Positions 34,369-64,000 are shown, counted from the first letter of the stretch. The stretch: DNA of 64,000 nucleotides from a virus (IMGVR_UViG_3300031992_000044), one strand, 5' to 3'. The notes: a model not told the origin generated them from the letters alone. Translations and numbers: made by a program.

Positions 34369-34544
34369 AATCTATTTTGTTAAGTTATGCAATATTGCAT
34401 TCGATAGGAAAAGGCTTATTCGACCGGAAGTTACCCGGGGGTACTTTCCTTTTGGCGAACAGGTGGGGAGGTGATTGGAGTGTGTTTCTTGTTTCTGCAT
34501 ATATAATACAATTTCTCGTTTCCACACTCGCACAACAAAAAATT

Positions 34545-34594
34545 TTGCAAAAAAAAATAAAAAGAGCTAAGAAGATTACTCCTCCTAGCTCTTT
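34545..34594 (-). terminator. strong Rho-independent terminator
   Basis: Minus strand AAAGAGCTA-GGAGGAGTAATCTTCT-TAGCTCTTT followed by TTATTTTTTTTT. Confidence 0.75.
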
Positions 34595-39140: not shown

Positions 39141-39215
39141 TGCTCCATGGTGTAGCGGTAGCACGGGAGGCTCTAACCCTCCAGGTCCGGGTTCGACTCG
39201 ATGGTGGGGCGACCA
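39141..39215 (+). tRNA. amber suppressor tRNA (anticodon CTA), Gln-like architecture, CCA encoded
   Basis: TGCTCCA TG GTGT AGCGGTA GCAC G GGAGG CTCTAAC CCTCC ... TGGGGCG A CCA. Anticodon CTA at 39173-39175. 7-bp acceptor (2 G-U pairs). The D-arm matches the phage tRNA-Gln(TTG). The T-arm (CCGGG TTCGACT CGATG) pairs badly. Confidence 0.75.
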
Positions 39216-39237: not shown

Positions 39238-39792
39238 ATGACGATTAAATTTAAAAGACTTTCAGAAAATGCGATCGCACCTGTAAAAGCACATAGCACA
39301 GATGCTGGATTTGATTTGACTTGCACTGACGTTACAACAGAGATTAACGAGAACGGTCAAGTTGTTATAGTATATCACACAGGTCTGTCACTCGAAATAC
39401 CAGAAGGATATTTTGGAGCACTTGTTTCAAGATCTTCTATTGCAAAGAAGCCATTGTTGCTGACAAATGCATTTGGCGTCGTTGACTCTGGTTTTCGTGG
39501 AGAAGTTATTGGTAAATTTAAAGTTACCACAGATTCTGTACCTAGTGTATATAAACCAGGTGAACGATTTGCGCAACTTTTGATCCTTCCTGTACCAGAT
39601 GTACAGTTCGAGGAATCAGAAACACTTAGTGAAACAGATCGTGGCGAAGGCAGCTACGGATCTACAGATGAACAGACATCAAGCGCACCATCGGCTACTC
39701 AGAGTCTTCCGGAAACAGAAGGCGAGCCTATAAACTCTGAGCCCGCAACAGACGGCAGCGGCGACGCAGTAAACAGCGTTGAGGAAGCATAA
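39238..39792 (+). CDS. dut: dUTPase with acidic/Ser-rich C-terminal extension
   Basis: ORF 39091..39792 trimmed to ATG 39238 because the upstream part overlies the tRNA. Motifs AGFDL, GVVDSGFRGE, RFAQL. Confidence 0.85.
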   Translation: MTIKFKRLSENAIAPVKAHSTDAGFDLTCTDVTTEINENGQVVIVYHTGLSLEIPEGYFGALVSRSSIAKKPLLLTNAFGVVDSGFRGEVIGKFKVTTDSVPSVYKPGERFAQLLILPVPDVQFEESETLSETDRGEGSYGSTDEQTSSAPSATQSLPETEGEPINSEPATDGSGDAVNSVEEA

Positions 39793-39970
39793 TAATTACG
39801 TAATAAAAGCTTCATGGGGTGGCGTACATCGGATGGCAAAACCTCACGAGGTTGATTTAATCAACTGATACGGGCTACATTGGTAGTCAAGTTAATAGGG
39901 ACTCTTTAGAGGGCCCCTATTGGCGTATATACATTATTCTCAAATTATTTCATTAATTCTCTTTATTTTT

Positions 39971-40852
39971 ATGGAAAACTCTAAAATTTTTATGTTCCCT
40001 GAGAACGGGACAAAGAGCTCTATCGATCCTACTCTGCTTGCTCTGATGAACAACAATGGTGGTTTCGGTGGTAATAACTGGATATGGATTCTCTTCCTCT
40101 GGCTCATCTGGGGAGGTTATGGAATGAATGGTTTTGGCGGCATGGGAGGCTTCGGAGGTAATGGCTACTTCGCTAACCAGCTTGCTAATAGCGAAGGTAG
40201 AGATCTTCTGCTGCAGGCTATAAATGGTCGTGCAGATGCTCTCGGACAGCTTGCTAGTATTACTAATAGTAATGTAGAACAAGTATAGGCCGCTGTCAAC
40301 ACTTTGAATACCAGCATCCAGAATGTAGGCTCTCAGGTTGGTATGTCTAGCTTACAGGTAACCAACGCAATTCAGAGTGGTAATGCTTCTTTAAGCCACC
40401 AACTCTGTGAGTGTTGCTGCGAGAATCGTCTGCTGACAACTCAGCAAGGTTATGAGAATCGCATCTAGACCATTGAGCAGACCAATCAGCTTGGTTCTCA
40501 GGCCGACCGCAATACACGGTCAATAACAGACGCTATTGCGAATCTCCAGACCAACATGACCCGTGAGTTCTGTGATATTCGTGAGCGTGAAATGCAAAGT
40601 AAGATTGACACACAGAGTGATATTATCACTCAACTGCGTGGTCAGCTGGATAATGATCGTCAGACAGCACAGCTGTTTAACGCTATTAATCCTCTGCAGG
40701 CTAAGGTTAATGAGATTGCTAACAAGCAGCCCAACACTGTGCCTGTTGTATGGCCTAACTTAACCGCAGTTAACAACACTCCTTACGCAGCTGGAGCTTT
40801 ATATGGCTTTGGTTGGAATAATGGTTGGGGTTCTAACAGCTTTTGGAATTGA
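39971..40852 (+). CDS. Gly-rich membrane / coiled-coil protein, 2 in-frame TAG codons
   Basis: ORFs 39920..40288 and 40556..40852 share a frame and are bridged through TAG 40286-88 and 40466-68. N-terminus GGFGGNNWIWILFLWLIWGGYG. TGA stop. Confidence 0.65.
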
Positions 40853-40871
40853 TTGAGAAAGGAGGTAGACT

Positions 40872-41228
40872 ATGTTTGGTACTACTAATTATCCTTTTAA
40901 CTTTGCCAATCGCCGTGGTATACCTATGATTGAGAGCAGTGGCGTTACAGCTACAACGGAGAACGTTACTATTGCCCTCCCTAATAGAGTATTCAGATGG
41001 CTTAATGACAAAGGGGTAATCCTTTTTAGGCTTTGCCAAGTAATTCCAGAAGCATCAGTAGATCTTCCTATAGTATTTACATCTAATGATTTTACACAGC
41101 CTCTCACCCTTGCTGGTGGCGATCCTGCTACAGGTGCAAATGTTATAGGTCCTGGTGTATACCTGATCTACTATGATAAAGATGCTAACTTAATGCAGCT
41201 CCTTACTATGGCTGCTAGTTCTAACTAA
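40872..41228 (+). CDS. hypothetical protein (118 aa)
   Basis: Intact ORF. TAA stop. Confidence 0.5.
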   Translation: MFGTTNYPFNFANRRGIPMIESSGVTATTENVTIALPNRVFRWLNDKGVILFRLCQVIPEASVDLPIVFTSNDFTQPLTLAGGDPATGANVIGPGVYLIYYDKDANLMQLLTMAASSN

Positions 41229-41240
41229 TATTAATTAACT

Positions 41241-41774
41241 ATGTTTTCAGCTTTACGTCAAGGAGCTCCCCTTTATATATTAAATAAGGTGGAGAAACCC
41301 GAGCTAAAAATCGGGTATGTTGAAAGTGTGACGCAGCCGCGTCCTAGATACGCCACTTATAATCCTACTGTTAGCTTTGGTACTAATATGGAATAGATAG
41401 TAGATGTTGTCGTAAAAGTAGGCACAGATAAACTAGAATATTCTGGTGTACCAGCTAATGCATCTATTCATGAGTATAACAAGATAGTAATCAGTGAGAG
41501 TAGAGAAGCTATGATCTCTGAAGTCGATGGTATGCTCTAGAGTAGTAAGAACGTCTTAGATAACGTAGATTATCATCAAGATATTATAAAATCGTGTGAG
41601 GATATTCTCAAATAGCTTAACCCTACTTACGCAAAAGAGCAAGAGAGGGATAGTGCTATAGAAGATCTAACAGCACAGGTAAATAAAATATAGACTGAGT
41701 TTGGATCTATTAAAGGTACTCTTTCAAAGATAGAAGGGCTCCTGACTAGAACTGAGAACGTCCAAACAGTATAA
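41241..41774 (+). CDS. hypothetical protein visible only with TAG as sense (4 in-frame TAG)
   Basis: Hand-translated from ATG 41241. 177 codons, with TAG (first at 41394-96) as the only in-frame stop until TAA 41772-74. Fills an otherwise empty 530-nt gap. Confidence 0.6.
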
Positions 41775-41776
41775 TT

Positions 41777-42049
41777 ATGGTGATGATTGAATTTAAAGAA
41801 GCAGCCGTTGATAAAGTATTCAACCTGCTTGAGGAGTCGTTTGAGCACAACAAGAATCAAAAGATGATTCTATGTGAGCTTTATGATGTTCTTGAAGATG
41901 CTATGAAAGATCATGGCGATGAAGACAAGATATCAAAAGGTATCATGGGTCTTCGTGAATCTAGAAGCGGTTACCGCTCTTCTATGCATGGTGGCTATAA
42001 ACGAGGAATGCGCGATGACTATCGTGAGGATAATCGTTATGCTTATTGA
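41777..42049 (+). CDS. hypothetical protein (90 aa)
   Basis: Intact ORF. TGA stop. Confidence 0.5.
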   Translation: MVMIEFKEAAVDKVFNLLEESFEHNKNQKMILCELYDVLEDAMKDHGDEDKISKGIMGLRESRSGYRSSMHGGYKRGMRDDYREDNRYAY

Positions 42050-42124
42050 TCGAAGATAATAACAGTGGGGGTCAGGGGATACTTGATCCCCATTTGTTTT
42101 TGTATAACTTAAATATTTATTATT

Positions 42125-42544
42125 ATGCATAAGACAGATTTGACCCAGTTTGACATCAAACCGGAAGCAATGGTTAATTATCTTCGATATAACGGTCCTC
42201 ATTTCAATAAGAAGCTATTACAGTTTGCTACTAGTAAGATGACTAAGAAAGGAATCAATGGCAAAGAAACAGCCATAGTTCCTTATACTATAGAACAAGT
42301 TGATAATATCATTAGAATAAACAATATCAACTTAGAATATAATCAGCTTTACGACTACGTATTTGTAGCTAACATGTGTAAAGCAGATTACTTAGGCTCT
42401 AGTATAACAGATGAAATGCATCTTGCTAAGTATATCAAAGATGTAATAGACGATGTTGATGGTTATGACGGTATCGTGTTTAATCGTTGGTATGCGGATA
42501 TGTGCCGAAAAGGTATTGTTATTAACTGGGAAGAAATGATATGA
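42125..42544 (+). CDS. hypothetical protein (139 aa)
   Basis: Intact ORF. TGA stop overlaps the next ATG. Confidence 0.5.
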   Translation: MHKTDLTQFDIKPEAMVNYLRYNGPHFNKKLLQFATSKMTKKGINGKETAIVPYTIEQVDNIIRINNINLEYNQLYDYVFVANMCKADYLGSSITDEMHLAKYIKDVIDDVDGYDGIVFNRWYADMCRKGIVINWEEMI

Positions 42545-42945
42545 CCAGCTAGTACATCAAGATAGGCAAGTACTGGAGAGTGCTTGTACTATATAATGCA
42601 GACTTCAACGATCTACCTGAGATAGAGGATTCTCTAGTACAGTTAGATTGTTCAGAAGAAGATATTGACGCTATTGCAAAAGTATTACAAAAGCGTGATA
42701 TAGGTTTTACATACAGTAACAGTGATTATAAAATGAGTATTGTATGTATTTCAGAGTCTACTTCTGCTGAAGAGTTTGTAAATACTGCAGCACACGAAGC
42801 TAAACATGTGCAGTCACATATGTGCGAATATTATGGTATACCGGAAGACAGTGAAGAAGCTGCCTATATCATAGGGCACATAGTGTCAGAGATGTACAAA
42901 ATGGTCAGCAAAGTAATTAAACACTATGTTCGATATCTAGGGTGA
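42541..42945 (+). CDS. small HExxH metallopeptidase-like protein, 1 in-frame TAG
   Basis: ATG 42541 (ATGA-type overlap), TAG 42550-52, then ORF 42580..42945 in the same frame. Motif AAHEAKHVQSH. Confidence 0.55.
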
Positions 42946-43444
42946 TAAAATTCGCCTATCTACCGACGAACTTGCAATCCCACCTTTTAGGGAGCATTAT
43001 AATAATGCTAAGGATAAAGCAATTGCGTTGAAAGAAATCGAATACATTATTTGGCTACACAAATGGAACAGCCCGTATGAAGCTTACCCAGCAGATAAAC
43101 GGGCTGCTATTGTAGCCAAAGATGTATTTAAAGATGATAAATATGTACCTACTGCAGAAGTAAAAGAACTTGCTAGACGCTTCATAGAGTTCCAAGAAAC
43201 ACCTGGTACAAGATTGTTAACAGCGTCATAGACTGCAGCAGAGGGGCTTATAGCTGCCCTAAATGACTACTCGTAGGGTAATATGGATATAGATACTGCT
43301 ATTAAAGTAACACGTATCTTAAAAGATGTTGGTAATATTGTTAAGTCTCTAGATATAGCTATGAAACAAGCTAAAGCCGAGTAGTTGGAGACTGGTAAAG
43401 TTAAAGGTGGAGGTATAATAGGCCTCTACGAAATGGTTAAATAA
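42926..43444 (+). CDS. hypothetical protein, 4 in-frame TAG codons
   Basis: ATG 42926. TAG at 42938-40, 43229-31 and two more. Same frame as ORF 43028..43231. TAA at 43442-44. Confidence 0.5.
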
Positions 43445-43452
43445 TATACAAC

Positions 43453-43989
43453 ATGGAGAAAAGAGTTTTATTTACAGAACTTGATGACAGGGGATCACAT
43501 CTCCGTAGAGACATTACTCCCACTGCGGTGGTAACCGACAAACGTCGTTTCCCGATAGCGCAGTTCTGGGATGCAAACAAAACTTATGATGTAATCGTAG
43601 CTGATGCCACAAGTGCTTCAGATACATTAGAAAAGGCTGAGAAGAATCTTAATAATGAGATTGCAACAGCCAGAGCTGCAGAAGCTACGTTAAGAGCTCA
43701 GTCTGTAGCTACCGCATCATATGATAGTCAAAATAAACTTATTAAATTCTATAATGCAAACGGTACTCTTCTAGACACGAGTATTGATGCCACTAACTTT
43801 ATCAAGGATGGAATGGTAAGTAATGTTGCTATAGACGGCGACTATCTTGTTATTACATTTAATACAGATGCTGGGCAAGACGATATAGAGATTCCTTTGA
43901 GTGATATATTTAATCCCAACAATTATTATACTAAGACACAAATAGATAATATGATTGGGGATATTGAATCGTTACTTTCTAATATTTAA
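43453..43989 (+). CDS. tail-fibre-associated protein (178 aa)
   Basis: C-terminal NPNNYYTKTQIDNMIGDIESLL is repeated in the 51818 fibre gene. Located upstream of the fibre genes. Confidence 0.55.
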   Translation: MEKRVLFTELDDRGSHLRRDITPTAVVTDKRRFPIAQFWDANKTYDVIVADATSASDTLEKAEKNLNNEIATARAAEATLRAQSVATASYDSQNKLIKFYNANGTLLDTSIDATNFIKDGMVSNVAIDGDYLVITFNTDAGQDDIEIPLSDIFNPNNYYTKTQIDNMIGDIESLLSNI

Positions 43990-45077
43990 TGATTATGATA
44001 TCAGAAGAAATTACAAGATTACAAACAGCTAAAGCTAATATTAAAACTGCTATAGAAAACAAAGGGGTAGAAGTTAGTTCTAGTGCTAAGATAGATGATT
44101 ATGCAAGTTTAATAGACGACATAAGTAGTGGCGGAGACACTTCAAAATATGGAAACCTTATTGATAACTATAGCGGTAGCACTGTTACAAATTTCAATTT
44201 TTATGCATTGTTTGAACATTTAACAATACCTAGTAATATTCAAACATTATGGCTAAATTTCCCAAATTATAGTCAGATTAAGTCAATAAGTTTTGAAGCA
44301 AATTCACAATGCACTAGTTTGCCTAGCCAATGGTTTTTAAATGTGACCACTTTAACAAATGCAACTTTACCACCATTGATTACAATAATACCAAATCAAT
44401 GTTTTGATAATACAAGAATTTCTACAATAGATATTCCAAGTGGTGTTACAACCATTAATCCTTATGCTTTCAGACAAAATCCGTCACTTACTACTGTTAA
44501 TTTCCAATCTAACAATACACTTACAACCATTGGTGCTAGTGCTTTTGATAACTGTACAAATTTGTCTTCAATTACTATACCATCAAGTGTTACAAGTATT
44601 GGTAATAATGCATTCCAATACTGTAGTAGCCTTACAAGTATAATTATACCAAGTGGTGTTACAACCATTAATGCTTATGCTTTCCAAGGCTGTACTAGTC
44701 TTACAAGTATAGATATACCAAGTGGAGTTACAAATATTGGTGATTTTACTTTCCGTGGTTGCAGTAGTTTAACAAGTGTAACCATTGCTAATAGTGTTAC
44801 AAGTATTGGTGGTTATGCTTTCCAAGGCTGTACTAGTCTTACAAGTATAGATATACCAAGTGGAGTTACAAATATTGGTGATTATGCTTTCCAATACTGT
44901 AGTAGTCTATCAAGTGTAACTGTAAAAGCAGCAACGCCTCCAACATTGGGTGCAAGTGCCTTTAATGATACAAATAACTGTCCAATATATGTTCCATCTG
45001 AAAGTGTTGAAGCATATAAGTCAGCAAGTGGTTGGAGTAACTATGCAAGTAGAATCCAGCCAATACCTACAGTATAA
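43989..45077 (+). CDS. BspA-like leucine-rich-repeat protein
   Basis: At least 6 repeats of about 23 aa: IPSGVT.IG..AF.GC.SLTSI. No TAG codon. Confidence 0.8.
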   Translation: MIMISEEITRLQTAKANIKTAIENKGVEVSSSAKIDDYASLIDDISSGGDTSKYGNLIDNYSGSTVTNFNFYALFEHLTIPSNIQTLWLNFPNYSQIKSISFEANSQCTSLPSQWFLNVTTLTNATLPPLITIIPNQCFDNTRISTIDIPSGVTTINPYAFRQNPSLTTVNFQSNNTLTTIGASAFDNCTNLSSITIPSSVTSIGNNAFQYCSSLTSIIIPSGVTTINAYAFQGCTSLTSIDIPSGVTNIGDFTFRGCSSLTSVTIANSVTSIGGYAFQGCTSLTSIDIPSGVTNIGDYAFQYCSSLSSVTVKAATPPTLGASAFNDTNNCPIYVPSESVEAYKSASGWSNYASRIQPIPTV

Positions 45078-45084
45078 TTAAACT

Positions 45085-47832
45085 ATGGCAGTATTAAGAT
45101 ATTTTCATCAAGACCCCAGACAAACATCTGTACAAGAGTCATCAGTAATAGATAAACAAGGTACTGTATTAACACAGAAGTTAACTACTATAAATCAATC
45201 TATAACTAACAATACACAAGTTTTAGAAGATAAGTAGAATAGTGTACCAGGTAAATCTCTTTCTACTAATGATTTTACGGATGAATATAAGAACAAACTT
45301 AGAGGAATTGAAGAAGGAGCTGAGGTTAATGTACAATCTGACTGGGGCGAAGATGACAATACTGCAGATAGTTACATTAAGAATAAGCCTACATCACTAC
45401 CAGCTTCAGATGTATATGATTGGGCTAAACAACCAAACAAACCGTCTTATAACTTAGATGAGGTTCCGGATGGTAATATAAGAAAGCTTAGTAATTATAT
45501 ACCATTAGCCCAAAAAGGTATATATGGCGGTGTAGCTACATTGGGAGCTAATGATGGTAAAGTGCCAGAATCACAGCTTCCCAGTTATGTAGATGATGTA
45601 TTAGAATATACAAATAATAGTCAATTCCCTGTTATAGGAGAAAGCGGTAAGATATATGTAAACACTACTACTAATCTTACTTATAGGTGGACTGGTACGT
45701 AGTATACAGAGATAAGTCCGTCTATAGCCTTGGGGGAAACATCATCTACAGCTTATGCTGGAGATAAAGGTAAAGCTCTTGCGGATAGTTTATCTTCTTT
45801 GACAGGTATAGTAAACGATACGCAAGATTATCAAGATACATTAGATTGGAACACTAGAGTAGCTATAGCTAAAATAAATGGTACAGAGATAACAGCTAAG
45901 TTGCCGTCAAATCCCGACACATGGAGGCCTATTAGTGATTCTATCAATACTGTTAGTTCTACAATATCTGCATCACTTACTGCAGTAAAGGCTGCATATG
46001 ACTTAGCTGCAAGTAAGACATCGAATACTGGTACAGTAACGTCAGTAGGATTAACTGTACCGACAGGATTATCTGTATCAGGTAGTCCAGTAACTACATC
46101 TGGCACATTAGCTATTACATACGCTAGCGGATATTCTATACCTACTACAGCTAAATAGGATGAGTGGGATGCTAAGCAGAATGCTATATCAGATCTATCT
46201 ACTATACGTACCAATGCCAGTAATGGTAATACGGCATACGGTTGGGGCAATCATGCTAATGCTGGGTATTAGATGGCTATATCTGATTTGGCCACTATTA
46301 GAGACAGGGCCGATGAGGGTCATGTTGCTTATGGGTGGGGAAACCATGCTGAGGCTGGATATGTTACGTCATCCGGTGTGACATCTATAAAAATAAAAGC
46401 CACTTCCCCAATAGTTAGTAGCAGTTCTTCTGCCATAACTACAACAGGAACAAGATATATAGGTATAGCAGACGCATACGGAGATATAAAAAACCCATAT
46501 GGTGCCAAAACGGCAAATACTATACTTGCTGGTCCGACTACAGGATCTGCTGCAGTTCCAACATTTAGAGAATTAGAACAATCCGATATACCAACTTTAG
46601 ATTGGAGTAAGATAAATGCTACGGTATCAACCACAACAGTAGGATCCGCTTCGGCTAGTACAAATATATCTGCTGACGACATTACGGCATGGGATCCTGG
46701 AGCTACACCGACACTTGGAACCGCAATACCAGCAGATGATATAACTGCATGGGACGCCGGAAGTACTCCAACATTAGGAACAGCAATAAGCGCGGATGAT
46801 ATTACAGCATGGTCTGCAGGATCACTGCCTACTTTAGGGACAGCAATATCTGCAGACGACATTACTGCTTGGAGTGCTGGAACGCTACCAACATTAGGCA
46901 CCGCGATACCAGCTGACGACATAACAGATTGGACAACAAATGTACCTACGGAAGTTGTTCCAAATACAGTTGTTATAGGCGGAAGTACTACTAGTATACC
47001 AAATATATCTAAGAAGACTGTTGTAACAAGCGTAACAAAGAAAACAGTCGTTACTGGCGGTAGTACTACAGATGTGCCTAATATTAGTAAAAAGACAGTA
47101 GTTACCGGAGGTAGCACAACTGATGTACCTAATATATCTAAGAAGACTGTTGTTACCGGTGGAAGTACAACAGATGTTCCCAATATATCTAAAAAGACCG
47201 TAATAACAAGTGTATCGTTATCTGGTGGCATACTTACTATAAACACTGGTGATAGTGTAACAGTTGGTACAGCTATAAAGGCATATACCACTCTGAATAC
47301 TGGCGACAGTGTTACAGTCGGCACACCTATAAAAGCTTATACTAGTCTTACTACTGGAGATTCTGTAACGGTGGGAGATCCTATAAAAGCGTATACAAGT
47401 CTAACAACAGGCGATAGTGTCACAGTATCAACGGGCGATAGTGTAACTGTCGGAGCCGCTATAAAAGCGTACACGTCTTTAACCACAGGTCCTGCCGCAA
47501 CAGTTACTGCTGGCACAGCAGCATCTCTTGATTATAGTGCCAAGTCTATACCAAACATTACTGGTGTTGGTACACTACCGTCGTTGTCGTATACTTCGCG
47601 TAGTATACCAAATATTACTGGTGTTGGTACTCTCCCATCACTGTCTTATACATCTAGAAGTATACCTAATGTAACAGACGTAGGTACTGCCCCATCTCTT
47701 ACTTATACAGCTAAATCTATACCTAATGTAACTAGTGTGGGATCTACCCCAACACTAACTTACGCATCTCGTTCTATACCAAATATATCAGTAACAAATA
47801 AAACAGTAGTCACAGGAATAACTACACCATAA
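45085..47832 (+). CDS. tail fibre protein 1 (about 915 codons), 4 in-frame TAG codons
   Basis: One frame from ATG 45085 through TAG 45235-37, 45700-02, 46156-58 and 46270-72 into ORF 46273..47832. Contains the SDW..D..A..YIKNKP fibre motif and four families of peptide repeats. Confidence 0.75.
46666..47800 (+). repeat. four blocks of in-frame tandem peptide repeats inside fibre 1
   Basis: ISADDITAW.AG..PTLGTA x5 (54 nt). GGSTTDVPNISKKTVVT x4 (51 nt). TGDSVTVGTAIKAYTSL x5. LPSLSYTSRSIPNITGVGT x5. Copies differ mostly at synonymous positions. Confidence 0.85.
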
Positions 47833-47842
47833 AGAAGATAAT

Positions 47843-51805: not shown

Positions 51806-51817
51806 ATATAATCGATT

Positions 51818-53419: not shown

Positions 53420-53430
53420 TAATATAATAT

Positions 53431-55473
53431 ATGGTAGACTTTAATAAAAAGATTCTAAATAGTTCAAAGTTCCGCTAGCCAGCTATATTCTTTAAAGAGC
53501 ATGGATGTTATACACTGGCTCCGCGTGGAACAACCGATTATATACAATATTGGGATAGAGAAACACAAAGGTGCATAAACGGATATGTAGCACCTGATGG
53601 CGACGCTATTACAGGCTACCATTATTTTTACCTAAACTATAGTCCTATTATGAAGTTGGAGGAAACTAAGTATACAGATAGGTACGGAAACGAACGTACC
53701 AGAAGAGAACGTGTACTTAATTTCCCCGACTTCTGGGATTATGATTATTACTACTTCAATGCGATAGAAGAAGCCGAAAACCAAGGGAAACACATGGCAA
53801 CCCTTAAATGCAGACAGAGAGGTTATAGCTTTAAAGGGGCTAGTATGCTGGTGCGAAACTATGAACTCATCCCAGGATCAAAGAATTTCGCAGTAGCTTC
53901 TGAGTAGAAGTTTCTTATAGGAGATGGACTACTTACGAAAGCTTGGTAGATCATGGATTTCGTAGACAAGCACACAGCATGGTCTAAACAACGTCTAACA
54001 TCAACCCGTATGGAGCGTGTATCTGGTTACAAAGTCACAGATGAATTTGGTAAACAGACAGAACAAGGATATTTGAGCTCTATTACAGGTATTACACTAA
54101 AGAATGACCCAGAACGTCTTCGTGGTACTCGTGGTAAGCTTGTGCTATTTGAGGAGTGCGGTAAGTTCCCCAACCTAGAAACAGCATGGCGTGTTGAACA
54201 ACCTGCTGTAGAAACTGACGACGGTGTGGCATTCGGTTTGCTTTGTGCATTTGGTACAGGTGGTACTGAAGGAGGTAGCTTTGATGGTCTAAAGAATCTA
54301 TTCTATAAACCAGATGCATTTAATGTATTATCTTTCGATAATATATGGGATGACGGATAGGAGAATACTAAATGTGGATTCTTTGTACCAGCGTGGAGTA
54401 ATATGGGTCCTGAGTTCATGGATGAAGACGGTAATAGCGATAAAGATAGATCTATAGAAGAATTAATGGTATAGCGTAACAAAGTTAAAGATGGAGGCGC
54501 TACACAGACATCTATAGATAGGTTTATCTCAGAACGTCCTTTAAAGCCACAAGAGGCTGTCTTAGAGCTTGGAAGAAACATATTCCCTAGAAAGCTATTG
54601 ATGGACCAGCTAACCCGTATCAGAACCAATAAGAAGCTTTAGAATATGAAACATATTGTAGATCTTCTATGGGACGGTAAAGGTGGTGTTGAAGCAGTAG
54701 AAAAGAAATCTGGAGATATAACTACTTATCACTTAAAGAAAGATGACAAACCAAAAGGATCAGTAGTTATCTGGGAATACCCAATCACAGATCCCCCATT
54801 TGGATTATACATTGGCGGCTGCGACCCGTATGATCATGACGAGTCGTTCACTAACTCGTTAGGATCGACGTTTATTTTTAAAAGAGTTAGAGCTGGAGAG
54901 GCTTGGAACGATGTAATAGTCGCAGAATATACTGGGCGACCAGATACTGCTGAAGAATATTACGAAAACGTGCGTAAACTATTGATATTCTATAATGCAC
55001 GTCTGTTGTTTGAGAATGAACGTAAGGGTATCTACCCTTACTTCACAAACAAACACTGTGATTATCTTCTTGCAGATTAGCCAGATAAAATAATTACGGA
55101 AGTCTTTAAAGACAGTAGAGTACAGCGCCGCAAAGGCTGTCATATGACTAAATAGATTAGGGCGTATGGAGAAGGATTAATCCTCGAATGGCTTATGGAA
55201 GAGTATGAAGAAGGGCATCCTAATCTAGAAAGAATATACAGCGAACCTTTGATAGAAGAGTTAATAGAAAACGACGGTGAGAAAAACGTAGACCGTGTTA
55301 TTGCTATGTGTATGGTTATGATATATAGAGAAGAACTATATCAAGTTAAAGTGTCCGCTGCAAAAGAACAAAACAAATAGGTTGAACTCTTCGAACTACC
55401 TTTATTCAGTTAGCGATACTGGGATGCTGATGAAGAGGTAGTGCAAGACAACATACCTGTATTTAACTTTTAA
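53431..55473 (+). CDS. terL: terminase large subunit, 10 in-frame TAG codons
   Basis: A single frame carries ORF pieces 53650.., 53953.., 54646.. and 55195... TAG at 53476, 53905, 53950, 54358, 54472, 54640, 55078, 55153, 55378 and 55411. VLFEECG (Walker B-like) and GGCDPYDHD (nuclease Asp) motifs. TAA at 55471-73. Confidence 0.8.
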
Positions 55474-55476
55474 TAT

Positions 55477-57966
55477 ATGGTTAGAGTAGACGATAATTTA
55501 TATAACGTATCATTTCCCCAATAGAAACTACCACTAAAAAAGAAAGACGAATAGTGGCAGCATGATTGTGTAAACTGGATAATCGGCGAGGGGAACGTTG
55601 CGTCTGGAGGTATGAATAAGACGCGATTCGGAGAGATACAAACCTACTATAATCTTTATAATTCTATATTTGATGAAAAAGACTTCAAGCGTATTACGAA
55701 CCCATTTAAGGTAGAAGATGGGTTCCCCGCTACTCCTCAAGATTTCAATATAATTAGGCCTAAGGTAGACCTCCTTATAGGTGAAGAGACAAAGAGGCCA
55801 ATGAACTTCAGGGTGGTGAGAACGTCGTAGGAAGCCGCTTCAGAGCTTATGGACAGAGAGAAGGAGATGCTCATCCAATATATTATGGCATCTATTACTT
55901 CTCAGATGGGTCCTGAAGAAGCACAATAGTTTTAGCAATAGTTACAGTCTGGCGAGATAATGCCTCCTGAAGCTATAGCTAAATATATGTAGAAAGATTA
56001 TAAAGATGTTATAGAAAACACAGCATATCATACCCTCACATACTTACGAGAAAAACTAAACTTGGACAATGAGTTTATCAAAGGCTGGAAAGATGCTCTT
56101 ATTGCAGGTACTGAATTCTATTATGTTGGTGTAATGAACGATGAGCCGTACATGGAGAGAGTGAACCCAGAATACTTCGATTATGATCATAGTCCTGATC
56201 TAGAGTTTGTAGAAGATGGTTCGTGGTGCTGTCGTAGAATGAGGATGCCTGTGGCTGAGATATATGACCGTTATTATAATAAGCTTAGCGAGAAAGACTT
56301 GAATAAGCTTAACGAGATGATGGGTAGCAGACACGCTAATGATCTTGGTGATAGACCTCCTGTAGATAACTTCGGTGGTGGTATACAATTCCATATCTAT
56401 GATAATCCTACTATGGATTAGAAGACTAGATATGCTATAAATGTATGGCACTGCTGTTGGAAATCTTTCAAAAAGATATACTATGTTACATACTTCGATG
56501 AAGCCGGTCAGGCACAAGTAGAAATTATGGACGAGTCTTATAAGAAGACAGGACAGGAGATATCAGTTGAACCGGACTGGATTATAGAAGTTTGGGAAGG
56601 ATACCGTGCAGGATCTGATCTTTATTTTGGTATTCAGCCTATTGAGTACCAGCATGTATCAATTGATAACCCTAATTCTCAAAAGCTTCCGTATTGCGGA
56701 TGTGTCTACTCTAATACCAACAGTAGGCCACGTTCTCTTGTAAGTATACTTAAGCCTCTACAGTATATGTATATTGTATTGTGGTATAGACTTGAGTTAG
56801 CTATAGCCAGAGATAAGGGAAAGGTAGTAAACATGGATATTACATAGATTCCTAAATCTATGAATATCACTCCTGATAGATGGATGCACTACTTGTCTTC
56901 TGTAGGCGTAAACTTTATTAATCCTTATGAAGAAGGTTGGAACATCGCAGGTAGAGAAGGCGGAAAGCCTGCTACGTTTAATTAGATCACTGCTCTCGAT
57001 CTTACTATGTCGAACGTAATCGCTGAATATATTCAGCTGATGGATAAGATTGAGCAATTGGCTGGTACTATATCAGGTATTACAGAACAGCGTGAAGGCG
57101 CTATTAGTTCTAATGAACTTGTAGGTAATGTAGAACGTAGTGTTGTACAGTCTTCTCATATTACTGAGCCTTTGTTCTGGGCTCACAACCAATGTAAGCG
57201 TCATGTACTTAACATGTTGTTAAATACAGCTAAAGGGGCATGGTAGCAGACAGGTAAGAAGAAGCTTAGTTATATCTTCGATAATGGAGAACGTGCTTTT
57301 GTTGATATCCAAGATAAATTCTACTATGAAGATATGGATGTGTTTGTAAGCGACACTTCTAAAGACATGGAAAACATTTAGAAGTTGCAGCAACTTATTC
57401 AGCCGGCTATGCAGAATGGTGCTAGCTTGCTTGAAGCAGCTGAGGTACTTACCAACGATAACTTCAACATCATCAAGCAGAAGCTTCTAGAGATGCAGCA
57501 ACGTCAAGAACAGCAAATGCAACAGCAACAAGAAGCTGAGCAACAACAAGCTATACAACTGCAACAAATGCAGAATGAAGCTCGTGAACAAGAACTTATG
57601 CTTGAAGAGGCTAAGATGGAGCTTGAGCGTTACAAGATCGATGCTGACAATTAGACTAAGATTGCGGTTGCTGAGATATCTACTTATCGTGGTACTGAGG
57701 AGAAAGATATCAATCAGAACAATATCCCAGATCCGCAGGAAATGTACGATATTGCTATTCAGCAGTAGAAGCTGCAATCCGATGCTTATACGAAGCGTTA
57801 CGAAGCAAATCAGAAGAAGAATATAGAAGACAAGAAGATTGAGCTCGAACGTGAGAAGATGAAGCACGAGATGGCACTACAGAAGCAGAAGGATGACGCG
57901 GCTCTTGAGCGTGAGAAGGTTAAAGGGCGCTACGCTCTTCGTAACAAAACATCGGGAGAGCGATGA
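55477..57966 (+). CDS. portal protein (about 829 codons), about 14 in-frame TAG codons
   Basis: ORF pieces 55612.., 56062.., 56527.., 57007.. and 57385.. all lie in frame 1, immediately after terL. Gln-rich coiled-coil C-terminus. TGA at 57964-66. The portal call rests on position and size. Confidence 0.65.
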
Positions 57967-58136
57967 CGTACGCTGAAGAACAAGAGCTTCTATAGCTTAC
58001 TAGAGAGAACAATCAATTGTTGAAACTTATACTGAGATATGTTTGGCATGATGGAGGCGATGATTTCATTACCAACATCATTGCTAACATAATCGGTAAT
58101 AGAATAGATCCTGCTTATGTATAGAGATCCAAGTGA
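57963..58136 (+). CDS. small protein (about 57 codons, 2 TAG)
   Basis: ATG overlaps the portal TGA (ATGA). TAG at 57993-95 and 58122-24. TGA at 58134-36. Confidence 0.35.
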
Positions 58137-60105
58137 ATTTAGAGAGCGCTTTAAGGCGTATAAAGAAGGTAAATCTGTACGAGAGATCTATGGATTGTCT
58201 GGGTATGCTGGAGGTAAAAGTACTATTGAAGACACCGCCGATTTTCTTAAACAGTATGAAGGGTTTAGAGATAAAACATATCTAGATGGAAAGGGGATAC
58301 CCACTATTGGATACGGTTTTACGGATGCTAAATTTGTAAACAAAGGAAGAATAACAAAGGCTGAAGCGGATGCTGAGTTAAAAAGACAAATCGCATTTAG
58401 ATAGGCAAAACTTAGAAAGAAACTTGGTCCTGCAGTGTGGGATTCTTTATCTAACGACAGTAAGAAAGCTCTCACGTCGTATCATTATAATTATCCTTCC
58501 GGATTTGAAGATGATACCAAGTTTATGAAATATTGGAGGTCTGGACAGTATGCAAAAGCTATAAAAGAAGTAGATGCAGGATGGAACGATTCTGCAAATC
58601 CAGGGCTTCGTACACGTAGAATGAAAGAGTAGTAGTTACTATTTTCAGACCCTGTACTTGGAGGTTTTATTGTTCCAGAAACAAAACCTGAACCAATTAT
58701 AGCTATGCCAGACGCTACTAGAGTATCTACTATTCCTACTATACAATAGAAAGCTATAGATTATTCTGATCGTAGAAATGCAGTAGCCGCTGAAGCGGAG
58801 CGTGCTATGTGGGCTCATAATGTAATGGAGGATATGAAAGGTGCTTATCAAGTACCTATCTGGGAATCTCCTTCATTACCAGCATTGACTCCTGTAGAGT
58901 ATGATGTTACTCCTTTGAAGACATACGCTGGTGGTAAAGTTTCAAATGAACCGGTAATAACTCAAGGACGTGCTGGTAGTAGATTGGACAAACTCGACAG
59001 AATGATGGATCCGGACGAAGACGACGGTGTGGCAACTAGAGTGGCAAAGAAAATAGGAAAAGGTATTACATCTATCGCACAAGATGCAAAGAAAATATTT
59101 GGATTAGAAACAGTAGATAGATTTGCTACTCGCACACAACGTCCAGAAGATTATGTAGACGCAGCATTCCTTACAGTAGGTAATGCTATCATATCTAAAA
59201 TAATGAAGTCGTCTTCTAAGGCGTTCATAAAATAGTTCGTAATGTCTTTTGATGATATGGATGCTAGAGCGATTGGAAAATATTTCTTTTAGGAGCATCC
59301 AGAATTAATGACACAACCGCAAGAAGCATGGTATGGAGAATTAGCTAAAAAATCAGATTCATATTTTCGTTAGGCGATAGATCACAGAGTCAAAATGTTT
59401 GATCGAGAAGGAAGACCTCTCAGCCCAGAAAGTATAGCAGCTTAGATCAGTCCTGATATCAAAATTGCACCAATTAAAGGAAGTCGCTATGGGGGAATTT
59501 ATTCTGCTCCCGATAATACTATGCTCGTCAATAGTGATCTTGTAAAAGACCCAAGAACTGCTGCTAAAGTATATAATCACGAACGAGCTCATGCAATGCA
59601 AACAGCGTTTGAGAATGAAGTAGGATTGCCGTACCCGATTAGATACGGTACAGAAATGGAAGCTTTATTCCCGTTTACAGCAGAGCAAAAGGCGAAACGT
59701 CCAGGCGTGCATATAGGTAAAGAAATTGATGCTTCTTTACACGAAGTTAAATCATTGCGTTCGTATGACACGAATCAACTAGGTAGAGCGTTAGATGTAG
59801 ACTTTGAAAATATGTCTGATGAAGAGTTTAAACAATATGCGAATAATGGTTATTTCAAAGATATAATGCAGAATATCTAGAACGGACTACAAGCACAAAA
59901 GAAATTTATAAGCAAACTTAAGGACGGCAAGCTACCTGGATATAGTAACGGCAAAATAAGAATTAAACCGGCTAATCTCGGTAAGTTTAATGCTACTAAA
60001 AAACGTACCGGTAAAACAACAGAAGAACTTACACACAGCAAAAACCCGCTTACTAGAAAACGCGCAATATTTGCACAGAATGCTAGAAAGTGGAATCACA
60101 AATAA
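58117..60105 (+). CDS. GH24-type lysozyme fused to an HExxH peptidase-like domain, 9 in-frame TAG codons
   Basis: N-terminus YEGFRDKTYLDGKGIPTIGYG (T4-lysozyme-family motif). C-terminus YNHERAHAMQ. ORF pieces 58117.., 58435.., 58807.. and 59521.. share one frame. Includes the tandem TAG-TAG at 58630-35. TAA at 60103-05. Confidence 0.7.
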
Positions 60106-60142
60106 CAGAATAAACTGTACAAATTAACTTACATATTATAAT

Positions 60143-61324
60143 ATGGCAAAGAAAAAGAATACAATTCCGAGCGGATTTGAAGATGTTCTTGGAAGCATTT
60201 ATTCTAATGCTGAAGGCCAAGAAGAGGTTACACAATTAACTGATGATAGAGGTTACTTTGTTAATCCCGACGACGATGATGATCCAATCGATGAACCGAT
60301 TAAGAATGAGCCGCCAGTGAAGAAAGATCCTGAGGACGGCAATGTAGACGATCCGGATAAACCGGATCCAAACGCAAAGGATGATGATTCTCCAATCCCT
60401 CCTAGCGTAAATAATCCTGAACCACCTATAACAGAACCACCTGTAGAGGATCCTAATAATAATGAACCTACAGATGCTGATGTAATAGAAGCTGAACAAG
60501 TAGGGTTGTTCTTTGATGCCCTAGGTAATTCACTTGGGTGGAACATGGATGAGATTGATGAAAAGAGTAGACCTCTTACTGTAGATCAACTAACCGAATA
60601 CATGCGTGATGTTGTACAGGAGAACTCCGTACCGCAATACGCAGACGATCGTATACAGGCGCTCGATGAGTATGTAAAGAACGGCGGTAAGTTTGAGGAC
60701 TTCTACCAGAAACAGCAACAGGCTCTTACTCTTGATGACATTAATCTCGAAGACGAGAATAATCAAAAGGCAGTTATACGTGAACTCATGCAGCGTAATG
60801 GTTATACCAACGAGCAGATTAATAAAAAGATTGAACGCTATGAAGATGGTGACATGCTGTTTGAGGAATCTGAGGATGCTTTAGATAGATTGAAGCAGCT
60901 TAGGCAGGCTGAGGTTGAAGAAGCTAAACGACAATAGGAAGAATTTGCACGACAATAGGAAGAACAATCAAGACAATTCTTCAGCACTGTAAGTAATGAC
61001 ATCAAATCACTTACTAACATTCGCGGCATCGCTATTCCTAAGGAAGATCGTCAAGCTTTGTTTGATTACATTTTCAAAGTGGATCAGAACGGTCAATCAC
61101 AGTATACTAAAGACTTTAATAAGAATCTATCAAAGAACCTTATTGAGTCTGCGTATTTTACGATGAAAGCTGATACTTTAATCAATAACGCGACGAAGGC
61201 AGGAGAAACATCCGCTGCTGAAAAACTTAGGAAAATGTTGAGGCATAGTGCAAAGAATCATAGCACTTATAATGCCGATGATAAACAGAAGTCAGTAACC
61301 GACCTTATAGGTGGTATGTTCTGA
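60143..61324 (+). CDS. acidic, Pro-rich virion/scaffold-like protein, 2 in-frame TAG codons
   Basis: ORFs 60143..60937 and 61058..61324 share a frame, bridged via TAG 60935-37 and 60956-58 (inside a 16-nt direct repeat ACGACAATAGGAAGAA). Lies immediately upstream of the capsid gene. Confidence 0.55.
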
Positions 61325-61346
61325 CGCACAAGAATTATAAATATAT

Positions 61347-62870
61347 ATGAATAATACTTTACTTAACAATCTCCAGCTGTACCGTGGACGTCGTTTCTCG
61401 GACCTGGTAGATGAAAACATGATTTCTAACGCCCTGCTGACTAGACCTCATGAGGTGTCTGGTCTGCTTTCACTGGTATTTGGTACAAAAGACGATGGTG
61501 TTTCTACTACTATCGATCTGCTCACCGGTGGTCTTGGCAAGACAATGATTATTGATAACCGCGAGTTTGAGTGGGCTGTCCAGGTTGACAGCGAGCACGC
61601 TATTAACATTCGTTGGGCAAAGTGGAACGGTAAGGAGATTACCTCCGCTAACTATATTTCTGAGACTCCTGGTCTGAATGGTACTCCTATCTACCTCGCT
61701 CTTGAAGAGCGTTGGTTCGGTCCTGGTGCAATTCTGTCATTTGACGATTACAAGTTCCAGGTTCGTGTAAACGGTGTTCCTTATCAGGACGGTAGCGCTT
61801 GGGTATATGAGGTATATGTTGTTGATGGAGCACAGGCTGCTTACATCCCCGGTGAGTTCCTGCTTCCTGGTCGTCAGGTAAGCCGTTTGGGTTCTGCTTA
61901 CGAGGAGTACAGTGATGAGGCAGATATCATCAACTACCAGACTCCGTTTAAGATGCGTGGTCATCTGCAGACTCTCCGTCTGACTTATGATATTACTGGT
62001 GACGCATATTCAACGGTTCTGGCTATTGCTCTGCAGGATCCCGAGACTGGTAAGAAGAGCTATCTCTGGGCCGATTATCAGTACTGGCTCGCACTCCGTG
62101 AGTGGAAGAAGCGTGAGGAGTATCAGCTGTTGTTCTCTAAGAGCAACCGTCTGGCTGATGGTACTTATCTTAATAAAGGGACAAACGGCAGACCCGCACC
62201 TACGATGAGTGGTTTGTTCGAGCAGATTAGCCCGGCTAACATTCGTTACTATCATCACCTGACAGCTGAGCTGTTCGAGGATTATCTCTTCGACCTCTGC
62301 TACAATATCCTTGGTACCAATGAGCGTCGTTTCGTTGCTCTGACTGGTGAGATGGGTATTCGTGAGTTCGACCGTATCCTGAAGGAGAAGGTTGCTAGCT
62401 TCAATATGTGTGAGAATATCTTCGTTACCGGTAGCGGTCAGAACCTGACTCTCGGTGGTCAGTTCACTACCTACAACATGACAAACGGTATCACGCTGTC
62501 TCTGAAGCGTTGTCCTTTGTTCGATAACATGGAGATGTTCCGTCAGCTCCATCCGCTGACTGGTAAACCCCTGATGTCTTATACGTTCCTGTTCGTCAAT
62601 ATCAGCAACTTCGACGGTCAGGCTAACGTTGTTAAGGTTTGCCGCAAGGGTCGTGAGTTTGTTCAGTGGTACACCGGCGGTTCTGTTTCGCCTCAGGGTT
62701 ATGCAAACAGCATTAACACTCTGCGTTCTAACAGCCGTGATGGTTACCAGGTTCACTTCCTCGGTGAGGAGGGTATTATGGTTCGTAACCCGCTGAACTG
62801 TGGTATTCTGTACTGCGACGCTGAAGATACCGAAATCTGCAACGACGGCGGTATTAATGTCGGTGCGTAA
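61347..62870 (+). CDS. major capsid protein (507 aa), no TAG codon
   Basis: Long uninterrupted ORF in the head module. Visibly different, G/C-ending codon usage (CTG, CGT, GGT, TTC), as expected for a very highly expressed gene. Followed by a strong hairpin. Function is assigned by position, size and expression signature. Confidence 0.65.
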   Translation: MNNTLLNNLQLYRGRRFSDLVDENMISNALLTRPHEVSGLLSLVFGTKDDGVSTTIDLLTGGLGKTMIIDNREFEWAVQVDSEHAINIRWAKWNGKEITSANYISETPGLNGTPIYLALEERWFGPGAILSFDDYKFQVRVNGVPYQDGSAWVYEVYVVDGAQAAYIPGEFLLPGRQVSRLGSAYEEYSDEADIINYQTPFKMRGHLQTLRLTYDITGDAYSTVLAIALQDPETGKKSYLWADYQYWLALREWKKREEYQLLFSKSNRLADGTYLNKGTNGRPAPTMSGLFEQISPANIRYYHHLTAELFEDYLFDLCYNILGTNERRFVALTGEMGIREFDRILKEKVASFNMCENIFVTGSGQNLTLGGQFTTYNMTNGITLSLKRCPLFDNMEMFRQLHPLTGKPLMSYTFLFVNISNFDGQANVVKVCRKGREFVQWYTGGSVSPQGYANSINTLRSNSRDGYQVHFLGEEGIMVRNPLNCGILYCDAEDTEICNDGGINVGA

Positions 62871-62889
62871 TATCAATAAAACATACTGA

Positions 62890-62925
62890 TGTCCGAGGGG
62901 GCTTAGTGCCCCCGCCCGGCATCAC
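62890..62925 (+). terminator. stem-loop downstream of the capsid gene
   Basis: GGGGGC TTAGT GCCCCC nested inside GATGTCCG...CGGCATC. No clear U-tract. Confidence 0.5.
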
Positions 62926-62946
62926 AACATACTAATTATTATAATT

Positions 62947-63699
62947 ATGGTAGTTGAATTAAAGATTAAGAAGAAGAATCCCTGGGGATCTTTTATAAAG
63001 TATAGGAATTGTTTTGATTATATTGCTCCGTACTTTACACGTTCCGGGTCGATTTATACGGGTCTCACCCCAGAAGATGAGAAATATTATGAGAAAGCTT
63101 TGGGTTATCCCGAAGGACATCTTGCAAAAACATCAGAATTTTGGAATACATTCTCTGTAAAAGTTGGTGCACGTGGTTTGCTTCTCGACGATTCTATTCC
63201 TCGCCAAGCCATGATGATCAAATTCTTAGAAGGTCATAAGCGTGTTGCTACTACACTTGATAAACTTGATGCAGGTAAAGATTATCTGTTGATTAACCGT
63301 GAGGCTGAGGCAATTGAACAGAATAAGCAGAACAAGCTTCGTCGTGATGCAATTAAGCAGTTTGATACATTGTCGCTTGAGCAAATGCGTAAGTGTCTGC
63401 GTCTGTTTGGTGCTAATCCCGATCGTATGTCTAACGAACTTGTAGAATCTACATTGTTTGGTATTGTTGATAAACAACCTAAGAAGTTCATGGATAAGTG
63501 GGTTAACAATAAGTCCAAAGAGACGGAGTTCTTGCTTGAGAATGCTATTGCTAAAGGTGTAATTCGTAAAGATAAGACACACTATTTCTACGGTTCTGAT
63601 ATGTTTGCAGACTCGCTTGATGATGCTATTGCATATTTGGATAGTAAGAAGAATCAAGACCTTAAGCTTTCGATTATAAACGAAACAGAGAATAAATAA
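62947..63699 (+). CDS. hypothetical head-module protein (250 aa)
   Basis: Intact ORF, no TAG. TAA stop. Confidence 0.55.
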   Translation: MVVELKIKKKNPWGSFIKYRNCFDYIAPYFTRSGSIYTGLTPEDEKYYEKALGYPEGHLAKTSEFWNTFSVKVGARGLLLDDSIPRQAMMIKFLEGHKRVATTLDKLDAGKDYLLINREAEAIEQNKQNKLRRDAIKQFDTLSLEQMRKCLRLFGANPDRMSNELVESTLFGIVDKQPKKFMDKWVNNKSKETEFLLENAIAKGVIRKDKTHYFYGSDMFADSLDDAIAYLDSKKNQDLKLSIINETENK

Positions 63700-63718
63700 C
63701 TCTAATAAACATGTGATA

Positions 63719-64000
63719 TGACGCATAAAGACATATATACTAAGTTCGTGATAGAATATGACAAGGCAAATGTTACTTCGTCATATCCATCGTTAACAGA
63801 ATACGAAATAGCTACTGTTCTTGATAAAGCTTATAACGCACTGATTGCACAAAAGATAACTGGTAATAATTACAGACGGTCGATGTTCGAGTCTGACGTA
63901 AAATCTATTGCAGATCTTGAACCACTTGTTAAATCTGAAAAGAAGAGATTATCTTCAGAAAATTCGAGAGTTGCAAACATGAGTTATACTGATTGTCCTG
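63719..64000 (+). CDS. hypothetical protein, 3'-truncated by the window end
   Basis: Hand-translated from ATG 63719 (MTHKDIYTKFVIEYDKANVTSSYPSLTEYEIATVLDKAYN...). Open to position 64000. Confidence 0.5.

Follow-up and report, generated by a model that had tools for sequence, protein, structure and literature searches.

Reassignment of the stop codon TAG to glutamine is well described among crAss-like phages. It has been reported for crAss-like phages of groups Beta, Delta and Zeta, mostly in late genes (Yutin 2021, PMC7886860), peptides with Gln at TAG have been found in two crAss-like phages (Peters 2022, PMC9523058), and a temporal model of the code switch has been proposed by Borges et al. 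(10.1101/2021.08.26.457843). Here we present the case of IMGVR_UViG_3300031992_000044, a viral stretch of 64,000 nucleotides (39% GC) that we refer to as the window. An earlier note on this DNA claimed that its late genes use TAG as a sense codon for Gln (genetic code 15) and referred to the crAss-like literature just cited, which exists and says what was claimed. We find it very likely that the phage reads TAG in two ways, as Gln in virion, packaging and lysis genes and in three genes of the minus strand, and as a stop in its replication genes, the decoder being a phage-encoded tRNA with anticodon CUA, the tRNA(CUA). The use of TAG for Gln is supported by stop statistics, by protein profiles and by the codons of homologues. 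The finding is correct and it is not new: the window joins a known class of code-15 crAss-like phages that is already annotated in RefSeq relatives. Absent from the earlier note were the tRNA(CUA), the three recoded minus-strand genes and the TAG stops of early genes.

Roughly two thirds of the genome of a crAss-like gut phage (Crassvirales, Suoliviridae) lie in the window. Two divergent gene blocks meet near 36.9 kb, where the GC skew flips. The minus-strand block (1-36.8 kb) carries the replication genes and encodes a PDDEXK nuclease, a Toprim primase, a DnaB helicase and an AAA_24 ATPase, together with four tRNAs and a gene resembling transfer-messenger RNA (tmRNA). The plus-strand block encodes a dUTPase, fibre-like proteins, the terminase large subunit (TerL), the portal, a lysozyme-domain protein and the major capsid protein (MCP), which matches Pfam Crass_capsid with E=7.8e-207. 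All of the best nucleotide matches belong to the Suoliviridae within Crassvirales, most of them to the Oafivirinae, and show a nucleotide identity of about 75%, which in the nearest records extends over 48-68% of the TerL-MCP region, a placement made on the 64 kb of the window. Judged by these matches and by its crAss-type MCP, TerL and portal, all present, the phage is an Oafivirinae-like member of the Suoliviridae, in the Delta group. No record in the phage collection covers at least 80% of the query, and the public gene index has no entry identical to the MCP.

When genes are read stop to stop with only TAA and TGA as stops, the plus strand between 39971 and 61324 resolves into twelve tightly packed genes with gaps of 0-40 nt. 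The 20 complete plus-strand genes of 39238-63699 hold 59 in-frame TAG codons and not one TAA or TGA in 7993 codons; for unconstrained frames, the off-frame rates predict about 545 TAA and TGA codons. All 59 TAGs sit in the twelve genes, within 40286-60956, and every plus-strand gene terminates at TAA or TGA, none at TAG, in agreement with the earlier note on how the recoded genes end. The re-call of genes that it proposed raises the share of the block covered by open reading frames (ORFs) of at least 150 amino acids from 52.6% under table 11 to 91.4% with TAG as sense, against 54.5% when TGA and 61.9% when TAA is made sense instead. The counts that the note gave for TerL, the portal, the lysozyme fusion and the two large fibre-like genes all match our recount (Table 1), and so do its TerL coordinates apart from 53950, which is actually 53947. 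Its description of gene pieces separated by a single TAG without a change of frame also holds, with one correction: it reported two places with two TAGs in a row, and we find one tandem, in the lysozyme-domain gene (58630/58633, occupying 58630-58635). Recoding from 39971 onward applies to the twelve genes up to 61324, and six plus-strand stretches from 39238 on are free of TAG (39238-39792, 40872-41228, 41777-42544, 43453-45077, 61347-62870 and 62947-63699), among them the dUTPase and the MCP.

TerL and the portal each give a single continuous match to a PHROG profile that covers nearly the whole profile and spans all TAGs, so neither a frameshift nor re-initiation is needed to account for them. 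With X at the TAG positions, Pfam returns no match for either protein, and PHROGs resolved both. Alignments that end at the TAGs or that require frameshifts, which the earlier note had named as telling against recoding, were not seen: the alignments run through every TAG. Its other example of a domain crossing a TAG, the S74 chaperone at the end of the 1320-aa fibre-like protein, is less firm. The motif SDIRLKDI-TAG-SEW is present and the Peptidase_S74 match spans the TAG, but with 16.2 bits it stays below the Pfam cutoff of 22. Within genes the TAGs are placed uniformly (Kolmogorov-Smirnov p=0.69), and no significant shift of the first TAG toward the gene start is seen (p=0.18), which argues against a “gatekeeper” placement. 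A sense TAG is followed by A in 28 of 64 cases (44%), compared with 57 of 209 (27%) for CAA and CAG (Fisher p=0.02; 67 sense TAGs window-wide, 64 with context scored), a weak hint of a possible context preference for efficient suppression.

The homologues tell which amino acid is meant. Among 117 full-length TerL homologues, Gln occurs opposite all 10 TAGs of the window and is the majority residue at 8 of them, against a background of 4%. Since code 15 might already have been used in translating the database proteins, the comparison was repeated at the DNA level, on IMG/VR loci for TerL (77) and the portal (40). In these relatives the positions of the window's TAGs are filled mostly by TAG, CAA or CAG, so the expectation of the earlier note that Gln would face the TAGs is borne out. 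Conserved sites show no codon but these three. At TerL residue 159, the relatives have CAG in 39 loci, CAA in 22 and TAG in 16; at residue 550, TAG in 43, CAG in 22 and CAA in 12; at residue 650, CAG in 38 and TAG in 37. In the portal, 7 of the 14 sites show solely TAG, CAA or CAG. Among the other codons of TAG-containing columns, Gln makes up 27% in TerL (background 2.4%) and 54% in the portal (background 6.7%). Half of the 24 TerL and portal sites (12/24) have Gln in at least 89% of the non-TAG codons, and at no site does another residue predominate. To get from TAG to CAA takes two mutations, and CAA is nevertheless abundant, which points to selection on the amino acid and not to mutational proximity. 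The number of TAGs ranges from 0 to 15 in TerL and from 0 to 18 in the portal across relatives, so TAG and Gln codons turn over rapidly. At the level of alignment, these comparisons show TAG standing as an in-frame sense codon in conserved proteins, with Gln as the residue aligned to it.

That the TAGs go undecoded, the genes being pseudogenes, split genes or artefacts of assembly or sequencing, or giving mostly truncated products through leaky read-through, has a negligible chance of being right. It would fit the many short ORFs that table-11 gene callers produce, and GenBank PV686213 (L002, Bohxovirus sp. “endotrachealis”), from a related phage, is annotated in this way, its match from TerL onward being split into 17 “hypothetical proteins” under table 11. 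That record is fragmented under every single-stop reassignment, probably as the result of an indel-rich assembly, and is unusable as a comparator. In the window, the frames are interrupted solely by TAG, never by TAA, TGA or indels; the interrupted proteins include essential ones (TerL, portal) that are conserved end to end; and the TAG sites are shared, and interchange with CAA and CAG, across dozens of independent assemblies. Leaky read-through over the 10-14 TAGs of one gene would leave a negligible yield. A near-identical contig from ENA (L226) has identical TAG positions and fibres that are 100% identical, and its gene calls are full-length (915, 1320, 533 and 678 aa). The three fibre-region proteins upstream of TerL are 100% identical between the two, and TerL (10001-12037 in L226) is 97.2% identical. 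The TerL differences cluster C-terminally and five of them involve TAG (CAG to TAG, CAA to TAG, TAG to GCA, GAT to TAG and GTA to TAG), which suggests local recombination or rapid TAG turnover.

The candidate decoder lies 23 nt upstream of 39238, after five TAG-free plus-strand genes and before the TAG-free dUTPase. It matches Rfam RF00005 with 31.7 bits (gathering score 29) over model positions 5-66, a marginal score explained by a G-G mismatch and one extra 3' base in the T-stem. Homologues are found in at least 120 viral contigs by a search pattern that left the acceptor and T stems unconstrained. An alignment of 25 distinct sequences has 96.4% of its cloverleaf cells paired, compared with about 50% in slid controls, and 8 pairs, all of them in the acceptor and T stems, show compensatory changes; the observed values were reached by 0 of 500 shuffles. 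The anticodon loop CUCUAAC is invariant; one aligned sequence contains a one-base copying error in this loop, in an unpaired column, which leaves the pair counts as they are. This pattern of covariation in the homologues shows the structure of the tRNA(CUA) to be under selection. One could propose that the tRNA(CUA) is decayed or non-functional and that read-through comes from a host suppressor, from a factor outside the window or from inactivation of release factor 1 (RF1), a reading that would agree with the irregular T-stem and the marginal score, and with the imperfect match between recoding and detectable suppressors that Yutin et al. noted (PMC7886860). We regard it as improbable: the irregular T-arm recurs in many contigs and is conserved in its clade (30-35 bits) with a compensatory change of its own inside the T-stem (C48-G63 to U-A), five acceptor pairs covary, the anticodon loop does not vary, and in two subfamilies the gene keeps its place at the head of the late block.

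As for its amino acid, the 5' half of the tRNA(CUA) equals that of the phage-encoded tRNA-Gln(UUG), which resembles the tRNA(CUA) more than the window's other tRNAs do, and in RefSeq the homologues of the phages cr53_1 and cr60_1 are annotated as tRNA-Gln directly upstream of TerL. The tRNA(CUA) probably derives from a tRNA-Gln. The identity elements of the E. coli glutaminyl-tRNA synthetase (GlnRS) are U35, a weak 1-72 pair, G10, G2-C71, G3-C70 and G73. The CUA anticodon provides U35. In the 25 sequences the 1-72 pair is always weak (U-U in 10, U-G in 7, U-A in 7), G10 is invariant and G2-C71 is found in 15; pair 3-70 is C-G and the discriminator is A, as it is in tRNA-Gln(UUG), and the rules of the host's GlnRS may differ from those of E. 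coli. Charging with Gln is likely, given the weak 1-72 pair, the invariant G10, the likeness to tRNA-Gln(UUG) and the RefSeq annotations.

ARAGORN labels the tRNA(CUA) “Pyl”, a label derived from the anticodon alone, and together with some variable sites where relatives have K, E, A or R opposite TAG, and two minus-strand TAGs facing Asn and Leu in a related contig (L107), this could be taken to mean that TAG is sense for another amino acid (pyrrolysine, Glu, Lys, Tyr, Leu or Trp). A tRNA-Pyl has a 6-bp anticodon stem, a 3-nt variable loop, a small D-loop without GG and no T-psi-C, and goes together with pylS and pylBCD genes. The cloverleaf of the tRNA(CUA) is of another kind, with a 5-bp anticodon stem, a 4-nt variable loop, G18-G19 in the D-loop and a TTCGA T-loop. 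The window has no domain of PylS or any other aminoacyl-tRNA synthetase (aaRS) and none for pyrrolysine biosynthesis, and an identity as tRNA-Pyl was rejected. Every conserved TAG column is Gln, the abundance of CAA speaks for selection at the level of that amino acid, and in related phages it is Gln that proteomics found (PMC9523058). We give another amino acid scarcely any credence, and take TAG in the recoded genes as Gln.

On the minus strand TAG has two roles. Table-11 ORFs end in TAG in 12 of 52 cases, and the primase, helicase and DNA polymerase genes have no internal TAG. In three early genes that end at TAG, orthologues stop with TGA or TAA exactly at the window's TAG and the similarity ends there: at 10949-11668 and at 25271-25777 (89% identical) in L107, and at 33395-34012 in four phages. 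In a fourth gene (19459-19914) the TAG itself is conserved in five phages; the region downstream is conserved at the nucleotide level and its frame is broken by a 1-nt indel in three of the relatives (L096-L098). Judged by these orthologues, TAG is a genuine stop in at least four genes of the replication block, and the genome uses TAG both ways. If instead code 15 held for the whole genome, each early TAG “stop” would be a sense codon with a short C-terminal extension behind it. Four TAG-ending ORFs do meet TAA or TGA within 0-2 codons and thus do not discriminate, and expression of the suppressor would in any case carry ribosomes past the early TAG stops. Making TAG sense, however, barely moves the ORF coverage of the early block, from 63% to 66%, within the range of the control reassignments, and the orthologues' stops and the broken frame speak against such extensions. 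We know of no bacterial host in which TAG means Gln, a further point against the proposal. Code 15 throughout is very improbable, and we keep to a stop in the replication genes.

Two apparent cases of TAG read-through were examined and dropped. The conservation downstream of the TAG at 19459 belongs to a hairpin at the nucleotide level, and an apparent internal TAG in 34174-34575 is likewise followed by nucleotide-level conservation with a broken frame. The hairpin is an inverted repeat (GGGCTGT...ACAGCCC, 19421-19459, minus strand) that begins at the last base of the TAG stop, lies upstream of a sigma factor gene (18790-19356, minus strand) and is conserved in five phages despite the indel; it could act as a terminator or have a regulatory role. 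The sigma factor is of the extracytoplasmic-function (ECF) type of the sigma-70 family (Sigma70_r2 and r4, E~1e-12), a candidate for the control of middle or late transcription. The tandem stop of the DNA polymerase gene, TAG-TAA, ends translation with or without UAG suppression.

Sense TAGs occur on the minus strand too, in three genes that we call A, B and C. The homology of gene A with L107 crosses all three TAGs to a common TGA end, with one window TAG opposite a Q of L107 and one L107 TAG opposite a Q of the window. Gene B is 41-51% identical to its L107 counterpart across the TAGs, two of which are in common positions, and its N-terminal part matches Pfam Metallophos (E=1.9e-5). Gene C, adjoining the point of strand divergence, has four orthologues with 1-5 in-frame TAGs at differing positions and with TAA or TGA ends; here also TAG and Q interchange. 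Sense TAGs in three minus-strand genes and none in some plus-strand genes mean that recoding follows the identity of the gene and not the strand. The confinement mostly to late genes that the earlier note gave as known is therefore true of the structural and lysis block, where recoding is concentrated while the replication genes are standard, and genes A, B and C are exceptions to it.

These results suggest the following mechanism. Early genes, their timing read from gene function, would be translated with the standard code of the host. The tRNA(CUA), probably charged by the host GlnRS, would accumulate until ribosomes read UAG as Gln in competition with the host's RF1, and TAG-containing proteins would then be completed only after the switch. 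We infer that the competition with RF1 is overcome; for the portal, with 14 TAGs, a yield of 10% would take a read-through of at least about 85% per codon. Several points weigh against this picture. No release factor or aaRS domain, sought as a “code-change module”, is present in any ORF of the window that would explain how RF1 is out-competed. The label “late” comes from gene function. About a third of the genome lies outside the window, and the phage is known here from sequence. The T-stem is irregular, the score of the tRNA(CUA) comparing with 52-55 bits for canonical relatives. Finally, with three recoded genes on the minus strand and several TAG-free genes, including the MCP, on the plus strand, the recoding does not form a clean strand block. 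Scans near the tRNA and the divergence point for sigma-70 promoters, terminators and Bacteroides-type promoters did no better than chance. A shared motif, TATATACA, upstream of two late genes did not generalise and was discarded.

Table 1. Features of the window, with the number of in-frame sense TAG codons and the supporting match.
Feature	Coordinates	Strand	TAG	Evidence and remarks
DNA polymerase	8134-9999	-		phrog_1252 E=1e-134; tandem stop TAG-TAA at 8134-8139
Early gene, TAG stop judged genuine	10949-11668	-		L107 orthologue: TGA at same aligned residue
tRNA-Gln(UUG)	12117-12188	-		
Early gene, TAG stop judged genuine	19459-19914	-		TAG conserved in 5 phages
Recoded gene B, Metallophos-like, 621 aa	20620-22485	-	3	TAG at 22410, 22338, 21246
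Recoded gene A, 416 aa	22487-23737	-	3	TAG at 23662, 23656, 22612
Permuted (two-piece) tmRNA	23862-24110	-		ARAGORN (span 23771-24151); Rfam RF04321 49.4 bits, gathering score 47
Early gene ending at TAG	25271-25777	-		L107 orthologue: TAA at same position
Early gene, TAG stop judged genuine	33395-34012	-		TAA at same position in four orthologues
Recoded gene C, 175 aa	35766-36293	-	4	Adjoins strand-divergence point
Suppressor tRNA, anticodon CUA, 75 nt	39141-39215	+		ARAGORN; encoded CCA end
dUTPase	39238-39792	+	0	Pfam dUTPase E=1.6e-18; first gene after suppressor tRNA
Recoded gene without assigned function	39971-40852	+	2	phrog_16490 E=5e-40, single stretch
Recoded gene	41241-41774	+	4	phrog_28898 E=6e-28; TAG 40% of Gln-type codons
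Recoded gene	42541-42945	+	1	Overlaps 42926-43444
Recoded gene	42926-43444	+	4	Overlaps 42541-42945; TAG 67% of Gln-type codons
BspA-type leucine-rich-repeat protein	43989-45077	+	0	Pfam LRR_5 E=1e-114
Repeat-rich fibre-like protein, 915 aa	45085-47832	+	4	One 915-aa gene in L226
Fibre-like protein, 1320 aa	47843-51805	+	5	S74-like C-terminal motif; one 1320-aa gene in L226
Cys-rich repeat protein, 533 aa	51818-53419	+	2	
TerL	53431-55473	+	10	phrog_6681 E=8e-142, one stretch, residues 24-651
Portal	55477-57966	+	14	phrog_6547 E=9e-156, one stretch, residues 10-804
Protein with N-terminal lysozyme domain	58117-60105	+	9	Pfam Phage_lysozyme E=1e-16; phrog_7 endolysin
Recoded gene	60143-61324	+	2	Counterpart in cr124_1 annotated “regulatory protein”
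MCP	61347-62870	+	0	Pfam Crass_capsid

In the late genes other than the MCP, TAG makes up 7-67% of the Gln-type codons. The Gln codons of the MCP are 19 CAG, with neither CAA nor TAG, and the other late genes prefer CAA; a tRNA-Gln(CUG) is also encoded by the phage (27110-27185, minus strand). This suggests that the most highly expressed gene avoids the codon that depends on the suppressor. The MCP of the phage cr124_1 likewise has no TAG. The BspA-type leucine-rich-repeat gene has 13 Gln codons, none of them TAG, though it lies in the middle of the recoded block, and could indicate a recent acquisition from a source with the standard code.

In the minus-strand block, where coding coverage of that strand is only about 73%, three stretches lack a convincing ORF whether read with table 11 or with code 15 (3610-4705, 14254-16369 and 31278-32208), and Rfam finds nothing at gathering threshold in them. 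RAGATH-1 and type III hammerhead ribozymes and group I introns were found at gathering score nowhere in the window. Relatives do carry such elements: a RAGATH-1 hammerhead ribozyme in L104 (2994-3064, 65.8 bits), a type III hammerhead ribozyme in L099 (3225-3283, 49.8 bits) and a group I intron in L010 (437-684, 72.5 bits).

The permuted tmRNA occupies an ORF-free gap directly upstream of the recoded genes A and B. Conserved copies scoring 58-71 bits occur in 6 of 7 related loci, and the tag peptide, G(D/N)(Y/N)NI(V/A)DYTGL(K/Q)EAA, is conserved in 7 phages, with a tag ORF that ends in UGA. The main papers on crAss recoding make no mention of tmRNA, and in the literature searched we found no paper linking tmRNA to recoding in crAss-like phages. 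In recoded E. coli, tmRNA is reported to act at unassigned UAG (PMC6207430), a conceptually related situation. One may speculate that the phage tmRNA could rescue or tag ribosomes running off the mRNAs of the host and of early genes when termination at UAG is suppressed. As a distinct point, the T-arm variant of the tRNA(CUA) may be a functional adaptation, for example in maturation, in binding of elongation factor Tu or in evasion of host defences that target tRNAs, and it may explain the “missing” suppressors of earlier surveys that used a 35-bit tRNA cut-off. A code switch that reaches beyond the suppressor tRNA in these ways, with the tmRNA in its toolkit and the T-arm as an adaptation, is a doubtful proposition that we put forward tentatively.

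For annotation, the consequence is that essential genes of virion, packaging and lysis, about 21 kb in all, come apart under table 11. The window is also a clean example of two genetic codes in one phage genome, with TAG stops and sense TAGs side by side and the suppressor tRNA heading the recoded block. How proteins with 10-14 TAGs come to be completed against the competition of RF1 is a problem for the field as a whole, to which the window gives no answer.

The closest described phages are cr124_1 (Burzaovirus faecalis, NC_055899), cr53_1 and cr60_1, which have the same MCP, TerL and portal families in the same order (TerL-portal-...-MCP). In cr124_1, of the same subfamily, annotated single coding sequences carry 8, 15, 22 and 5 in-frame TAGs, and as in the window TerL and the portal have in-frame TAGs while the MCP is TAG-free. 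In cr53_1 and cr60_1 a homologous tRNA(CUA) heads the late block, as it does here. The code-15 crAss relatives in RefSeq have 74-75% nucleotide identity to the window from TerL to MCP. The window differs from cr124_1, cr53_1 and cr60_1 in being of a different species or genus, in its T-arm variant with the extra base and in TAG positions that partly differ. A bacterial parallel is E. coli supE, a tRNA-Gln amber suppressor with a CUA anticodon that reads UAG as Gln in competition with RF1. The window's tRNA resembles it in the CUA anticodon, in U1 with a weak 1-72 pair and in G10. It differs in being phage-encoded, in C3-G70 instead of G3-C70, in A73 instead of G73 and in the irregular T-stem, and its decoding has to be far more efficient than that of a typical supE.

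Also comparable are the Agate and Jade phages, with TGA read as Trp (code 4), and the TAG-recoded Lak phages, both described by Borges et al., in which a stop codon is likewise reassigned mainly in late genes within a standard-code host. Agate and Jade use a different stop codon and a different amino acid from the window, and some phages of the Agate, Jade and Lak type carry a release factor and an aaRS as a code-change module; none was found in the window. With the phages of Peters et al., where Gln at TAG has been proven by proteomics and for which the window offers a counterpart read from its DNA, the likeness lies in these features: code 15 restores the coding density, structural and lysis genes are recoded, replication genes are standard, and a suppressor tRNA is present.

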